Shown: positions 1 to 6,000 of the stretch, piece by piece
How positions within the stretch are numbered: position 1 is the first letter of the stretch
Layout: the number at the start of each line of letters is the position of its first letter
Source of the DNA: a candidate division WOR-3 bacterium
GTDB lineage: Bacteria; Hydrothermota; Tepidihabitantia; SM23-42; JAOAFX01
Assembly (NCBI GenBank): GCA_039802265.1
Contig: JBDRWI010000014.1
Location: 1-40,459 of the forward strand
Length of the DNA: 40,459 nt
Reading direction: 5' to 3'
Program-made: the position numbers

Positions 1-3000
1 ATGGTTTTTATTCAAAATGGATGTTATATCAGGGAATAATTGAGTTGAATAAAGAAACGAATTTATGGATTATATTTTTGGTTGCTGCAATGTTTGGAAG
101 CGTTTTGACTTTAGCATCATTTTTGAAAATGACACACTCTCTATTTTTAGGTGAAAGACCAAAGGAACTTGATAAGGTGCGTGAAGTGAGATTTGGAATG
201 ATAACGCCTACACTGATACTTGCTTTTCTTTGTATTATATTCGGTATTTTTGCCGAAAAAATTCCCCTCGCACGATTGATATATCCATCCTTACCATTCT
301 TTAAAATTGAACCGATTGGTTTCTGGTCTGCAGGATTAACGACAATTTTAATGATTTTAGGTCTTGTAATCGGATTGATTATATTTATTTTTGGAACCGG
401 ACTCAAGCCCAGGAAGGGAAAGGTATTTGTTGGCGGAGAGGTCCTTGATACTGAAGAGGCAAGGATTACCGGTCCGAATTTTTATTCATCTGTCCACCAA
501 ATTGATATGTTAGAAAAGACATACAAATTTGGTGAAGAGGGGGCGTTTGATTTTTATAATTATCTCCGCGGGGTATTGGGTGGATTTTCAGTTCTTTTCA
601 GAGAAGTGATTAATCAATTCTTTGTCATAATCTATCAGTCTTTGTCAAGAATTGTAGTTGCGCTTGGAAGTATCTTTTCTGCTATTCACACTGGTGAGTT
701 GCAGGGATATATAGGTTTGATATTTTTAGGGCTATTGATAATATTGCTACTGTTAGGAGTGAGATAATGATTGAGATATATCTATTTTTAGTCTTTATGA
801 TTATCGCTGCAATCATTGCGATTGAAATAAAGGATTTGCTTGCAGCAGCTATTGCTGTTGGCGCAGTTGGCTTTTCAGTGGCAATTCTTTTTATTTTGCT
901 CCAGGCACCAGACCTTGCTATTGTTCAGATTGTTGTAGAGATTCTTACATTGATAATATTTGTCGCTGTAATTTTCAGGACAACGGATATTGACGCGACC
1001 GTGGATAAAAAACTCACACCAGCACAGATTGTAGGTTTGGTTTTTTATGGGTTTTTTGTGATACTATTTATTGTTGTAATGGAGCGTATATTCAACACTC
1101 TGCCACCTTTCGGCTCACCAATTATGAAAGTGGCGAGCGAATATATAAAACTGGGTTTGCCCAAAGTCGGTGGTGCAAACATTGTGGCAGATATAATCCT
1201 TGATTTCCGCGGACTTGATACACTCGGTGAGGCAACGGTACTATTCACATCAGTGATTGGAGTACTGGCGGTGATGAGGAAATATGGGAAAAAGGCAACT
1301 TAAGGCAATTGGGGGCAATACGAGGCTTGTTAGAAAAAGGCAACTTAAGGCAATTGGGGGCAATTAGTGGCAGGAGGAAAAGAAGGCATAATGAGACAAA
1401 ATAAGATAAGAGAAGGCAAAAGAGGACATAAGAATATGATAGTATGGCAGAGTATTGATCAACTTGATATGATTGTTCAAAAAATTCTAAAAAAGATACC
1501 CAAGTATGAATTTAAATTGCGTTCACAGATTGATGACGCCTCAGATTCTGTAGGAGCAAATTTTGTAGAAGGTTATTACAGTGGATTTCTTACTGAATAT
1601 ATCAGGTTTTTGACATATAGTCGTAGGTCATTGGGCGAGCTTCAAGAGAGAATAAGAAGGGTTTTACGCAAAGGTTATATTACAAAAATTGAATTCGATG
1701 ATTTTGATGAAAGGTCTGGAAAGACAATGTTTCTTTTGAATCGCTTGATATACTCACTGAAGAACAAACAGAATTGCAAAAGGAGCAAAAGTGACTAAAT
1801 TATCACTGAGCGCCATTTATTATCTTTGGTTGCCCTGTTTTGTTCTTGGTTGCCATCAATTGCCACTTGTAGCCGTTAATTGCCCTGAATTGCCATTAAA
1901 TGCCCTGAAATGCCTTAAATTGCCATCGATTGCCTTGGTATGCCTTGTATATTGGAGGTATTTATGAGTTTGATCGTCAGGCGTATCACAAACCTTGTCA
2001 GTGGTTTTATATTTATGTATGGTATCTATATTATTTTGCATGGACATTTAACACCGGGTGGTGGTTTTGCTGGTGGCGTTATTGTTTCGGGTGCATTAAT
2101 TTTGCGGGTCCTTTCTTTTGGAAGTGCTGCGGAAAAAGAAAAAAGATTATCTACGATTGGTTCGGTATTTGAAAGTATCGGTGCCCTGCTCTTCTGGGGT
2201 GCAGCGTTTACGGGATTATTGGTAGCAGGTGTATTCTTTTTGAACGAACCCATTTTTGGACTCGGTAAACCCTTACATCTTTTCAGTGCTGGTTTGATAC
2301 CAATATGTAATATTGCGATCGGTATAAAGGTTTCGGTTGGCCTATTATCTATTTTCCTTGCCCTTGCCGCATTGAAATATATAATGGAGGACTGATATGA
2401 GTGAAAAGCCGATAAACGTTAACCGTGAACCGTTTACCGATTATGAAAATTTTGTTTTTGATTTTGAAAAACTTGATGTCTATCAACTTGCGCTTGATTT
2501 TGTTGACGAAGTTTTTGAAATTACTTCTAAAATACCGTGGCAATTGCAAAGTTCGCTCGGTGACAATTTCAGACGTGCCGCACTTTCTATTGTGAGCAAT
2601 ATTGCTGAAGGCAGTGGTAAGATTTCTAATAGAGAGAAAAAGCATTACTACAAGATAGCACTAACATCCGACCGTGAATGTATCCCAATGATAACGCTTT
2701 TGAAAAGGCGTAAGCTCATAAGTCAGAATATTTATGAAAATCTCCGCGAAATTTGCATTCGTATTTCTTCTATGTTGATTAAACTTGAGCAATCGGTTAA
2801 CGGTAAACGGTCAACGGTAAAAGGTACGCATAATTATGATGTCGGTCAACGGTCAACGGTAAACGGTAGACGATATAATAAGGAGGACTAATGGTTGTTT
2901 TCGCAAGTTGTATGATTTTATTTCTAATTGGTTTGTATGCAGTTGTTGCAAAGCGCAATTTAATAAAGATTGCGATTGGATTTGCAATAATGGAGTATGC

Positions 3001-6000
3001 CGTAAATTTGCTCTTTGCATTAATTGGTTTTAAAAAGGGCGCGATTGCACCAATCATAACGAAACTTGATATGCCTCATAATTTTGTTGACCCGGTCCCC
3101 CAAGCACTTGTTCTTACCGCAATTGTGATTGGTCTTGGAACAACTGCATTGCTCCTATCCTTCATTGTGCGCATATACGAAAAGTTCAAGACATTTGATG
3201 TGAGTGAGATAAAGAAGTTAAAGGGCTAACAAGAATGGGTGAAGAAGGGAAAATAAGGTTGAAAAGGGGTAAAAAAGGGATAGTTGAAAAAGGTATGGGT
3301 GAAGAAGGAAGAAAAGAGGTGAATGGGGGAAAAGGAGTGAAAGGCTTAATGGGCAAGGGATATACCAAGTTAATTGTATGGAAAAATGCTTGTGAATTGA
3401 GGAAATTAGTATATGAAATTACCAAAAAGTTCCCGACGAAAGAAATAAGGCGTGTAACGCAGATGCGTGATAGCGCAAGGTCTATAAAGCAGAATATTCA
3501 GGAAGGATACAAGAGAAGTTCAATCGGTGATTACATTCATCATCTTTCAATTGCCCAAGGTTCTCTTGGTGAACTTTCTGGCGATGTTGATGATTGTCTT
3601 GAGGATAATCTCATTAATAATAGAGAATATGCAGTTCTCAATAATTTAATTGTGCGGACAGATTATCTCCTGATGAGATTAATTCAATCACTCACCAAAA
3701 AGAAATTGGAGGTAACGGCATGATTAAAATATTATATCAAGCCGCGTTTTCCCCTCTTTACCCGTTTTTTCCCCTCTTCTCCCTTTTAATAAGGAGGAGA
3801 GCATGACCTTTCTACCACTTTTAATTGCTATACCTTTGTTATCTGCCTTCCTCATACCTCTTCTCTCTAAATTATGGAAACCATTTGCACCAATTATTGG
3901 CAATATTACTACTTTTTTATTATTTGTTCTTTCGTTATATGGAATTGCAGTAATCCAGGGATTTCCGATGCTCGTTTATAAATTTGGTAACTGGCCACCG
4001 CCGATCGGTATCGTATTTAGTTTTGATGCCCTATCGGCATTTATGGTATTGGTGATTTCAATTGTAGTATTTTCTGGGGCAATATTTGCTGTCCGTTATT
4101 TAAATCATTATACAGGTCAATGGAAATTCTGGACATTATATATGTTGATTACTACAGGTTTAATGGGTATTTCTGTAACCGGTGATTTATTCAATATGTT
4201 TGTCTGGATAGAAATCTCTGCAATCGCTTCTTATGCCCTTGTGAGTTTCGGTATAGAAGCAGAAGAACTTGAGGCTTCTTTTAAATATATGGTGATGGGC
4301 GAAATCGCCGGTATGACACTTCTTTTGACGATAGCATTGATTTATGCCAAGACTTCTACATTGAACCTTGCGGATATTGCCCTTTCTTTGCAATCAATAA
4401 AGGATTCGGCGTTCTACTGGTCCGTCCTTGCGCTTTTACTCTTTGCCTTTTCAGTAAAGGCAGCACTTGTGCCATTCCATTTCTGGCTCCCCGATGCCCA
4501 TCCGGCAGCACCTGCCCCCATTTCAAGCCTTCTATCCGGTGTATTTATCAAAGTCCTTGGAGTTTATACAAGTGCCCGGTTTATTTTTAATATATTCGGT
4601 CTCAATCGTGAAAATGCGCCTTTCTTCTTTAATATTCTTATTGGCTTGGGGCTTTTATCAATAATCTTCGCAGGAGTTACTGCACTAAACCAGAATGATT
4701 ATAAACGCCTGTTGGGATATTCTACGGTTTCCCAGGTTGGTTATATAATGCTTGGTTTAGGGGTTGGTAATTTTTATGGTGTTGCGGGTGCAATACTATA
4801 TATCCTTGCCCATGCACTTGCCAAAGGCTTACTATTTTTAACATCAGGTTCTGTAGTATATGCAACCGGCACGAGGGATATTAATAAACTGGGTGGTCTT
4901 GGTGAGAGAATGCCGACAACTGCCTGGAGTTTTAGATTTGGTGCTTTGTCTTTGATAGGACTTCCACCACTTGTGGGGTTCTTCGCAAAATTTTTAATCG
5001 CCATTGGTGCGATAAAACAAGGGTTCTTGTGGCTTGCAATCGTGGCAATTGGATTCAGCGGTGTTACCCTTGGTTATTTGCTAAAGATTGAAAACAATGT
5101 ATATTTGAAGAAAAATGGGGTAGAGGCTAAAGAATCTCCATTCCTTATGCGTGTGGCAATGGTATTTTTGGTCATTTTAATTATTCTCTTGGGAATTGGG
5201 TATAAACCAATGATGGATTTTGTGATACAACCGGCGGCTGAGGCTCTACTCAGAGGAACTGAATACATCAATCTGATATTGGGAGGATTATGAGCGATAA
5301 GGGTGAAGAAGGGTTAAGAAGGGTCAATAAGGGTGAAAGGGGGGATGGGCAATGAAATATGTAATTTATTTCATCATTGGTTTTTGCTTGTGGTTGCTTT
5401 TAACTCTGACAACAAATTTAGATCATATACTTGTTGGTGTGATTGTAGTTCTCTTGGGGACAATATTATTTGGTGGTTATTTTACGGATAAACCACAAAA
5501 ATTGCTCCAGCCGCATAGATTATTCTGGTTGATAATTTATGTTCCTGTATTTATATGGTATATGATCAAAGCAAACCTTGATGTAGCATACCGAACTCTC
5601 CATCCCCAGAGACCATTGAAACCAGGTATTGTTAAGATTAAGACGAATCTGAAATCCGATACCGGAAAAGTATTTTTGGCGAACTCAATTACCCTTACCC
5701 CAGGAACGATGACCGTGGACATAGATGGAGATTATCTCTACATCCACTGGATTTATGTTCAGGCAACCGATATTGAGAATGCATCAAAGATTATTGCCCG
5801 ACCATTTGAGCGGTTTTTGAGGAGGATATTTGATTAGCACCCGAAACCCGAAAAGATGTTCAAGCGTTTTACGGTTGCGAAATGCGCTAAGGTTTAGAAA
5901 AGCGGTTTCGTGTTACGACCAACTACAGACGAATCGCTTTTCGCAACCAACAAACAACGACATTTCATTTGGATTATTGAAATTCGTGATTTGTTTGGGA

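Follow-up and report, generated by a model that had tools for sequence, protein, structure and literature searches.

As the closest described relatives of the locus reported here, the intervening sequences (IVS) of 23S rRNA, known from Coxiella burnetii (helix 45) and Leptospira, hold a PF05635/S23p gene in a stem loop of complementary ends, carry short tandem arm repeats of variable copy number, and are patchily distributed and horizontally acquired (PMC4990558). The 5' arm of the Coxiella IVS contains heptamer repeats, at which RNase III cuts without ligation (PMC4990558). The Avd protein of diversity-generating retroelements (DGRs; PDB 4DWL, 8UB7) is a basic protein with a four-helix-bundle (FHB) fold that binds RNA in cis with repeated pockets, contacting flipped-out RNA bases via the same residues of different protomers (bioRxiv 10.1101/2023.10.23.563531). 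Short intergenic tandem arrays near starts and stops have been described as dispersed heptamers (TAACTGA) in Beggiatoaceae, Cyanobacteria and Bacteroidetes, their mechanism of spread not being known; that paper makes no mention of four-helix, S23 or intervening-sequence genes (PMC4679880).

The window analysed here (the whole stretch of DNA under study, 40,459 nucleotides from a candidate division WOR-3 bacterium) contains cassettes of 0.5-0.7 kb, each made of a left arm, a PF05635 gene and a right arm, which share the build of rRNA IVS and the fold and basic character of Avd. Unlike rRNA IVS, these cassettes lie between protein-coding genes, in mRNA junctions (no rRNA match was found in positions 1-8000, and the 23S on contig C100 of the genome spans 3013 nt), and use many different units of 7-10 nt; unlike the Coxiella IVS, whose open reading frame (ORF) is decaying, their FHB genes are intact, under selection and coupled to their neighbours. 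They differ from DGRs in having no adjacent reverse transcriptase or template/variable repeat: no reverse transcriptase was found in the operon, the genome's only match being a 110-aa open frame among the transposase genes of contig C83, and the longest direct repeat among those listed for positions 1-6000 is 43 nt. Unlike the dispersed heptamers, their arrays extend to units of 10 nt and correspond to the arms of particular protein clades. REP/RAYT (REPtron) and MITE/foldback elements also combine a gene between inverted repeats with many gene-less derivatives, and cyanobacterial STRR are comparable short tandem intergenic arrays; unlike REP/RAYT and MITE/foldback elements, the cassettes have no HUH/DDE transposase, and their arms consist of degenerate tandem repeats whose termini are not conserved. 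A search of mainly open-access literature found no description of such cassettes outside rRNA; the suspicion voiced in a first-pass annotation of this DNA, that they had probably been described already, found support there for the rRNA form only. No function is known for the large PF05635 family, and no origin is generally accepted for dispersed intergenic repeats of 7-8 nt; the results below link the two.

Three cassettes in one operon

Profile searches identify three PF05635/TIGR02436 genes (E 4e-18, 6e-27 and 4e-23) interleaved with MbhD/E, MnhB, MnhC and MnhD, in agreement with the earlier reading of three 23S_rRNA_IVP genes spaced one host gene apart in an Mrp/Mbh operon. Their PF05635 scores (66-94 bits) exceed the curated cut-off of 33.8 and their TIGR02436 scores (60-82) the cut-off of 24; the sole profile matches of the FHB cassettes are PF05635/TIGR02436 and PRK12275, and a transposase domain was not found. 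The features are as follows.

767..1303, + strand, mbhD/E-like host gene (Pfam MbhD, MbhE); final codons and stop lie within the first cassette 1 repeat units (junction alignment)
1288..1437, + strand, cassette 1 left arm; degenerate 10-nt units, GGC core; 39-nt duplication 45 nt apart; lag-10 identity 0.52
1391..1798, + strand, FHB1 (PF05635); start uncertain, longest frame begins at GTG 1367
1791..1967, + strand, 58-codon frame; GTG overlaps the FHB1 stop, crosses the right arm, TGA overlaps the mnhB ATG; the other frames have 3 and 4 stops
1832..1947, + strand, cassette 1 right arm; 10-nt units, GCC core, reverse complement of the cassette 1 left arm
1964..2395, + strand, mnhB host gene; SD at 1954-1958, just beyond the predicted stem
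2397..2891, + strand, FHB2; frame crosses both arms, begins 1 nt past the mnhB stop, stop overlaps the mnhC ATG
2409..2442, + strand, cassette 2 left arm; 7-nt units, CCG core
2791..2875, + strand, cassette 2 right arm; 7-nt units, CGG core, in two runs (2791-2826, 2842-2875)
2891..3229, + strand, mnhC (nuoK-like) host gene (profile search)
3234..3339, + strand, cassette 3 left arm; purine-rich 10-nt units, GGG core; in-frame N-terminal extension of FHB3
3235..3723, + strand, FHB3; predicted fold like XCC0516, BT_0352 and Avd
3720..3806, + strand, 28-codon frame; ATG overlaps the FHB3 stop, crosses the right arm, TGA overlaps the mnhD ATG
3747..3786, + strand, cassette 3 right arm; pyrimidine-rich 10-nt units, CCC core
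3803..5293, + strand, mnhD host gene (profile search)
5290..5355, + strand, mnhD-mnhE junction; lone gene-less GGG 10-mer left arm (5299-5338); 21-codon frame overlaps the mnhD stop and mnhE start
5830..6081, + strand, mnhE-mnhF junction; 240-nt gene-less insert with 7-mer runs (5839-5853, 5994-6024); 83-codon frame overlaps the mnhE stop and mnhF start
6671..6702, + strand, remnant left arm in mnhG; GGG 10-mer units form the final mnhG codons

At all three sites the upstream and downstream arrays are inverted relative to each other, as previously noted (inverted repeats I3, 1339-1372/1891-1924, 82%; I10, 2417-2442/2791-2816, 85%; I1, 3234-3273/3747-3786, 78%). The stated unit of 7-8 nt does not fit the window, where the periods are 10, 7 and 10 for cassettes 1, 2 and 3; in a wider set, periods of 7, 8, 9 and 10 occur in 28, 29, 11 and 25 loci (93 labelled of 139). 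Similar flanks had also been claimed for two copies elsewhere in the genome: that on contig C23 has 7-mer-like arms (score 34), that on C15 arms of irregular spacing and a weak score (28). Polarity at site 2 is reversed relative to sites 1 and 3, the C-rich arm coming first. Predicted stems enclose each FHB gene as stem loops of complementary ends, with 115, 39 and 29 long-range pairs of mean probability 0.8-0.93. Compared with 200 dinucleotide shuffles, duplex energies are -113.0 versus -71.5 at site 1 (0/200) and -40.1 versus -28.1 at site 2 (0/200); site 3 is no better than its shuffles (-48.1 versus -48.2, 94/200), so its purine/pyrimidine make-up alone accounts for the energy. In a 3x3 duplex matrix the own arm is best for the right arms at sites 1 and 2 and for the left arms at sites 1, 2 and 3; the site-3 right arm reaches -70.4 with the longer site-1 left arm versus -48.1 with its own. 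G-U-type versus A-C-type arm mismatches number 467:348 (ratio 1.34 versus 1.20 expected), an excess too small for telling RNA from DNA pairing.

The predicted FHB3 model (pLDDT 96.7) is a four-helix bundle and shows the Avd/XCC0516 fold (Foldseek: 2GSC, TM 0.88, rmsd 0.7; Avd, TM 0.76-0.78, identity 12-13%, with E 9.5e-3 for 4DWL). The protein core has a pI of 8.6-9.7, and the protein is probably a basic pentamer, a state taken from its homologues. Values of dN/dS for this type of protein (0.05-0.13, seven usable pairs) show evolution under purifying selection. Matches to PF05635 occur in 47/48 genomes of the order, and the window's genome has six such genes. Arrays of period 7, 8 or 10 number 119 genome-wide, about 20 per PF05635 gene, versus 0 in one shuffled copy; their labels as intergenic or within ORFs, derived from crude ORF calls, were disregarded.

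Arms and protein clades across loci

Own arms pair better than every swap at 53/120 loci of the order versus 1/89 control ORFs, the lone control success being the window's site-1 gene itself; 5/125 loci with short or N-masked flanks were excluded. The own combination ranks in the top 5% at 104/120 loci (the other 16/120 lie outside it) versus 3/89 controls, and beats all swaps in 15/27 when one locus per 60% cluster is counted. The preference for own over swapped arms reported in the first-pass annotation is thus independently reproduced. Upstream and downstream periods are equal in 100/139 loci (shuffled mean 37.7, maximum 55), and on a quick protein tree of 104 columns, from which the 46/139 loci without a clear period were excluded, the period changes 12 times versus 49.3 when shuffled (0/200). 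The cross-arm score is ~20 at protein identities below 50% and 40-43 above 70%. Comparison of these loci shows linkage between repeat unit and protein clade, and concerted change of left and right arm.

Across phyla, proteins of the FHB3 clade (47-67% identity) have retained left arms rich in GGG and right arms rich in CCC, for the most part of period 10, in records titled Omnitrophota, Patescibacteria, Margulisiibacteriota/Saganbacteria, Planctomycetia and Pseudomonadota; these cassettes adjoin unrelated genes, e.g. those for acyl carrier protein, tRNA synthetases and PEPCK. Within this clade, alignment favours own arms over those of clade-mates in 21/21 cases; duplex energy does so in 20/21, with a median of -13.8 kcal/mol. 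The earlier term "locus-specific" is therefore apt twice over, the clade setting the unit and the own arms surpassing those of clade-mates. Where neighbours are callable, they are co-oriented with the PF05635 gene in 71/80 cases upstream and 74/81 downstream. The linkage of unit and clade could arise by common descent only, recognition not being required.

Gain, loss and exchange at operon junctions

Matches to mnhB were obtained in 42/48 genomes. Among the best 30 mnhB loci, at least one PF05635 gene occupies the three junctions in 12 and none is present in 18, consistent with the 10-11 of 48 genomes previously counted with an insertion beside mnhB/nuoK. In the same 30 loci, site 1 is occupied in 7 and site 3 in 11, each by two clades, and site 2 in 4; an empty site-1 spacer measures 5-22 nt in 22. 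Junctions of relatives are empty (stop-GGAGG-ATG) or contain another clade, a gene-less hairpin or a single arm. In G009, whose mbhD/E, mnhB and mnhC are 96-100% identical to the window, site 1 is empty and site 3 holds a different clade. G025 carries an FHB3 cassette with an internal deletion at a second junction. The junctions compared show that gene and arms travel jointly, that cassettes come, go and replace one another, leaving gene-less hairpins and single arms as they decay, and that the right end of the cassette adjoins the host SD. The gene-centred element first proposed for this operon is upheld: gene and both arms form one cassette, gained, lost and swapped at operon junctions, with a predicted long mRNA stem and an Avd-fold protein.

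Divergent tracts are clearly enriched at junctions in G009 (77/960 versus 103/3165 in interiors), weakly in G010 (43/480 versus 228/3165), and are found also within genes. Gains and swaps among close alleles are accompanied by short replaced stretches of host gene, so that ordinary homologous recombination can account for them in close alleles. In G010, cassette 2 lies between direct copies, 11 nt long, of the SD-stop-start stretch, with one mismatch in the window (three near-identical alleles); junction alignment revealed no clean target-site duplication and none at all at sites 1 and 3 or at site 2 of G007, and arm termini differ even between orthologous copies. The only fair candidate for a recent jump is a 93%-identical protein at unrelated sites in G029 and G030; a 98%-identical pair in G016 proved to stem from local duplication about a gene for AAA-DUF4143, and a number of the remaining close pairs have their host site in common. 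Genes for DUF559 and nucleotidyltransferase-HEPN proteins gather at the same junctions, which may accordingly be merely tolerant spots.

Open frames across the arms

In the Mrp/Mbh operon, short open frames cross all right arms (15/15) and end at or just inside the next gene, 11 of the 15 in a start-codon overlap and 0 in frame with the host gene; this spanning of right arms is new here. Further gene-less junctions have spanning frames in 12/14 and 16/22 cases. Outside the operon, the counts are 27/47 versus 16.6 expected for right arms and 23/110 versus 25.1 for left arms, with 1/7 for array spacers elsewhere in the genome; ordinary spacers give 62/202 versus 32.1, so the shuffle underestimates the background about twofold. 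Spanning frames were therefore rejected as a general property of arms outside the operon, where the effect is weak. In all these counts related junctions are not independent, and of 155 loci 99 lacked a callable gene downstream and 36 lacked one upstream. These frames illustrate how a membrane-complex operon can carry several inserts without splicing, and they account for annotated ORFs that are tiny or are spuriously extended at the N- or C-terminus.

Proposed mechanism and alternative explanations

We consider it somewhat probable that the locus represents a mobile cassette of the rRNA-IVS type, resident in mRNA junctions, with a pentameric protein that probably recognises the repeat unit of its own cassette. 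The cassette would have the build of ORF-bearing 23S rRNA intervening sequences, housed between co-transcribed genes. A probable basic pentamer would bind its own unit on the transcript, each subunit taking one unit; such binding would account for the short fixed-period core kept across phyla despite drifting spacer bases. The paired arms would form a stem that RNase III, whose gene is present in the genome, may cut without ligation as in rRNA IVS, freeing the RNA of the cassette and breaking the operon mRNA at points between genes. The host would tolerate the insert, downstream genes retaining their SD and, in so tightly coupled an operon for a membrane complex, open frames across the arms passing ribosomes along. 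Spread among homologous junctions would proceed by recombination through short stretches of host flank and by carriage with the operon when that is transferred; entry into new junctions would need a further step, and no transposase, nuclease or intact reverse transcriptase belonging to the cassette was found. A broader version is speculative and in our view doubtful: PF05635 proteins would be the specificity factors of widespread RNA-based mobile cassettes, each clade's pentamer reading its own 7-10-nt unit and the excised RNA being re-inserted just upstream of an SD by host or trans-acting enzymes, such that rRNA IVS, DGR Avd and dispersed heptamers belong to one element family. Its programmable protein-repeat code, if real, would amount to a modular system of a new kind for recognising nucleic acids.

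The long stems predicted around each gene (115, 39 and 29 pairs) and an orientation fixed relative to the host transcript are also what an mRNA intron would display, the arms folding and the cassette being excised and its flanks re-joined with the help of the Avd-like protein, as first suggested. Splicing is nonetheless highly improbable. The inserts sit between complete genes with their own SD, so that removal of a cassette restores nothing; the host stop codon at site 1 comes from the left arm; and the FHB2 frame is coupled to both neighbours while open frames cross the other arms to the next start, so that ribosomes can translate through the cassette and splicing is unnecessary. A search of positions 1-8000 against Rfam models at E<=1 gave only a tRNA and a sub-threshold plastid match, with no group I or group II intron core, and rRNA IVS are cut without ligation (PMC4990558). 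A raw RNA run yielded no reads here, and RNA contigs matched the tRNA only. Three "joints" in one contig set, probably DNA, do not match the cassette ends and were set aside. That small genes have simply strayed into tolerant junctions, with purine-rich leaders and pyrimidine-rich trailers pairing by composition, fits the site 3 energy, which equals its shuffles, and the other cargo genes; this is hardly credible against the swap, period, tree and cross-phylum tests, the swap and period/tree tests largely refuting it, and the opposite, C-rich-first polarity of site 2.

Two further readings were weighed. Inverted arrays of binding sites resemble transposon ends and foldback elements, and the arms may be such arrays in DNA, moved by an enzyme supplied in trans, with gene-less hairpins as MITE-like derivatives. 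Inverted arrays of a single unit, numerous gene-less copies, the weak G-U signal, the 11-nt direct repeat around cassette 2 in G010 and the 93%-identical protein at unrelated G029/G030 sites agree with this. We regard it as distinctly unlikely, given the missing transposase domain, arm ends that vary even among orthologous copies, no duplication at sites 1 and 3 and G007 site 2, nearly uniform co-orientation with host genes, and own arms surpassing those of clade-mates, an outcome not expected from a shared binding site by itself. The protein may instead be a domesticated post-transcriptional regulator that binds repeats scattered through the genome and adjusts how operon segments are translated or processed, in this case setting the ratios of Mrp/Mbh subunits. 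Purifying selection and some 20 arrays per gene would suit such a role, and the mnhB SD at site 1 is predicted to be open (0.79) when both arms are present but closed (0.21) when only the right part is; MacGregor proposed that intergenic heptamer repeats act in translation (PMC4679880). The switch is absent at sites 2 (0.24/0.27) and 3 (0.14/0.10), so a general SD-occlusion switch was rejected; moreover, occupancy is patchy, clades replace each other at one junction, and 18 of the best 30 mnhB loci have no cassette, all of which makes this reading unlikely.

Insertion between co-transcribed genes is also seen for 23S_rRNA_IVP genes within cas operons, which a passage of PMC3936711 treats as possible Cas accessories, with no description of arms there. 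One locus of the order, L072, lies between cas1-like and cas2-like genes (as read from their translations), and its left arm contains the heptamer GACAGAT, identical to that of the Coxiella IVS.

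Three cassettes in an Mrp/Mbh-type operon

An operon occupies the window's first 7.4 kb and is interrupted, as the first-pass annotation had recognized, by three four-helix-bundle genes (PF05635/TIGR02436 matches) inserted behind mbhD/E, mnhB and mnhC. Each gene is bracketed by degenerate tandem arrays that are inverted with respect to each other, also as claimed; gene and arms together are referred to here as a cassette. The claimed repeat period of 7-8 nt holds for cassette 2 and is wrong for the other two, because the measured periods are 10, 7 and 10 nt.

Features of the window
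1-7361: Mrp/Mbh-type operon with genes for an antiporter-like subunit, MbhD/E, MnhB, C, D, E, F, G and a 4Fe-4S protein
Site 1, mbhD/E-mnhB junction: cassette 1 (gene FHB1), period 10 nt
Site 2, mnhB-mnhC junction: cassette 2 (gene FHB2), period 7 nt
Site 3, mnhC-mnhD junction: cassette 3 (gene FHB3), period 10 nt
mnhD-E junction, mnhE-F junction and end of mnhG: gene-less cassette remnants
7665-7738: tRNA gene, downstream of the operon
13827-13985: extended low-complexity stretch rich in T and C, in which several periods overlap
28269-28399: 66-nt unit in two near-perfect tandem copies (96% match)

Predicted folds of the entire cassettes place a long stem around each of the three genes. Compared with 200 dinucleotide shuffles, the arm duplex is stronger at site 1 (-113.0 vs -71.5) and site 2 (-40.1 vs -28.1), and no better at site 3 (-48.1 vs -48.2; 94/200).

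Matching arms and clade-specific repeat units

The claim that the arms of a cassette match each other better than swapped arms was borne out across the order. The comparison drew on some 90 of 321 PF05635 matches from 48 genomes and on the operon loci; this gave 125 distinct genes, 120 of them with usable flanks. The reverse complement of a locus's own downstream flank was the best match of its upstream flank, against all cross-clade swaps, in 53/120 loci, and within the top 5% of swaps in 104/120; with one locus per 60% cluster the figures are 15/27 and 21/27. Among 89 control small ORFs, own flanks were best in one, which is FHB1 itself, and in the top 5% in three. No signal was seen when flanks were compared directly, without inversion (median z 0.27 vs 4.5).

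The repeat unit follows the protein. Cross-arm similarity is flat, at about 20, where protein identity is below 50%, and equals that of own arms (40-43 vs 38) once identity exceeds 70%. The best period is common to both arms in 100 of 139 non-redundant loci (shuffled mean 37.7, maximum 55), and on a quick protein tree (104 columns, 93 labelled rows) the period changes 12 times, compared with 49.3 for shuffled labels. A scan of named genomes for the FHB3 clade yielded 59 loci, of which the closest 25 were inspected; those of them at 47-67% identity, from records with the titles Omnitrophota, Patescibacteria, Margulisiibacteriota, Saganbacteria, Planctomycetia and Pseudomonadota, have G-rich left arms, C-rich right arms and a period of 9-11, mostly 10, and adjoin unrelated host genes. 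Own arms nevertheless match better than those of clade-mates, in 21/21 FHB3-clade loci by alignment and 20/21 by duplex energy (all clades: 97 vs 27 and 79 vs 45), and arm arrangement differs between orthologous copies. Gene and arms thus form one unit whose repeat is clade specific, with arrays that turn over rapidly and arms that change in concert.

Junctions in relatives

Of the best 30 mnhB loci, seven have a filled site 1 (four of the FHB1 clade, three of an FHB3-related clade), four a filled site 2 and 11 a filled site 3 (nine FHB3, two FHB1-like); in 12 genomes at least one of the three sites is filled. At empty junctions the genes overlap, or stop, GGAGG and ATG lie together in some 22 nt; at filled sites 1 and 3 the end of the insert directly precedes the host GGAGG. 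The site-2 homologue of G007, another genome of the order (65% identity), has a different 7-mer in both arms, and G025 carries an FHB3 cassette with an internal deletion at a different junction. Relatives' junctions also hold gene-less hairpins or lone left or right arms, and at mnhE-mnhF in G008 (L192) the end of mnhE, with its SD and stop, is directly duplicated behind a gene-less heptamer hairpin. The window's own genome has 119 arrays of period 7, 8 or 10 (0 in one shuffled copy), against six PF05635 genes; contigs C57, C75, C79, C103 and C54 hold dense 7-8-nt array clusters, in which several different families lie next to each other at successive gene junctions. A control search of Bacteroides thetaiotaomicron gave a PF05635 match as well.

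Other genes occur at these operon junctions in G006 and G013. A DUF559 endonuclease gene flanked by inverted palindromic arms (L193:4019-4396 in G006; the mnhD-mnhE junction in G013), with gene-less derivatives in G009, G010 and G027, constitutes another kind of cassette with comparable habits. A nucleotidyltransferase-HEPN pair lies between mnhG and the 4Fe-4S gene of G006 (L193:2020-2747).

Transfer of the operon

G009 and G010 (L186, L187) are largely 95-100% identical to the window across the operon, in a mosaic pattern, and only 68-75% identical to the rest of it: the operon, which encodes an energy-conserving complex, was recently transferred horizontally between two genera, with cassette 2 as a passenger. 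The transfer involved many short tracts of recombination. Site 1 is empty in both genomes, and site 3 of G009 holds a cassette of another clade. Short divergent host-gene stretches, such as the opening 35 nt of mnhB, accompany differing junction alleles. Mismatches close to differing junctions, close to junctions with the same allele and inside genes number 77/960, 13/1080 and 103/3165 in G009 and 43/480, 57/1560 and 228/3165 in G010, a pattern compatible with allele exchange by homologous recombination and not proof that the cassette drives it. Cassette 2 is surrounded by an 11-nt direct repeat, the like of which is absent from the other sites. In G029 and G030 a protein pair with 93% identity lies at unrelated sites.

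Open frames across the arms

At site 1 an open frame of 58 codons begins at the FHB1 stop, crosses the right arm and closes with a TGA that overlaps the mnhB ATG, and a 28-codon frame crosses the right arm of site 3 likewise. The FHB2 frame includes both of its own arms and contacts both neighbour genes, and the gene-less inserts at mnhD-E and mnhE-F are spanned by frames of 21 and 83 codons. Counted over distinct operon alleles, right arms are spanned in 15/15 (8.2 expected from shuffles; 6 after a 1-base and 8 after a 2-base shift) and left arms in 14/19. The right-arm frames end in a start overlap (11/15) or 17-29 nt inside mnhB (4/15), and none of the 15 is in frame with the host gene. Gene-less operon junctions are spanned in 12/14 (4.1 expected) and 16/22 (4.4 expected). 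Several points weigh the other way: the alleles are related to each other, frames also span ordinary genome spacers in 62/202 (32.1 expected), array spacers elsewhere in the genome are spanned in 1/7, and outside the operon the counts are 27/47 for right arms (16.6 expected) and 23/110 for left arms (25.1 expected). We read the frames as selection in this coupled operon for keeping translation going through the inserts.

Such translation presupposes an unspliced transcript and argues against an intron-like role. The earlier proposal that the cassettes can be spliced from the mRNA is very improbable. No Rfam introns were found at this locus, and the only reverse transcriptase in the genome is a fragment located elsewhere.

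Protein and mechanism

The FHB3 model is a four-helix bundle (pLDDT 96.7) nearest to XCC0516 (TM 0.88), then BT_0352 and Avd; FHB2 matches XCC0516 at the sequence level. The protein cores have a basic pI of 8.6-9.7. For the seven unsaturated pairs, none of them FHB2, dN/dS is 0.05-0.13. XCC0516 is reported as a homopentamer (PMC4990558), and equivalent residues of different Avd protomers bind flipped-out RNA bases (bioRxiv 10.1101/2023.10.23.563531); by analogy, a pentamer ring could recognize the tandem repeat units. An RNase III gene is present in the genome.

Comparable systems include REPtrons, foldback elements and STRR. By location the cassettes are not rRNA intervening sequences; they would work like ORF-bearing ones, but at mRNA junctions. 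In Coxiella, the 5' arm of such a sequence carries heptamer repeats, where RNase III cleaves without ligation (PMC4990558). That the feature is a cassette is well supported and highly probable; that it is a mobile cassette of this type, whose probably pentameric protein reads its own repeat unit and whose RNA may be cut by RNase III without ligation, we favour only slightly.

Related ORFs are contained in CPR rRNA insertions (bioRxiv 10.1101/2024.02.27.582315), PF05635 is described as similar to Avd (PMC10053308), and PMC5524665 has it as a table entry only. Heptamer repeats between genes have been reported as of unknown mechanism, in a paper that does not mention four-helix/PF05635 genes (PMC4679880). 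A literature search, exclusive of supplements, found no published account of the cassette outside rRNA. Eighteen PF05635-type genes have been described in cas loci (PMC3936711); at L072:1012-1407 a four-helix gene lies between cas1-like and cas2-like genes, and its left arm contains a heptamer identical to one in the published Coxiella arm. The window's genome has a large-subunit rRNA copy of 3013 nt on contig C100 and a second, shorter match of 2155 nt over the full model on C22 (543-2697; L209).
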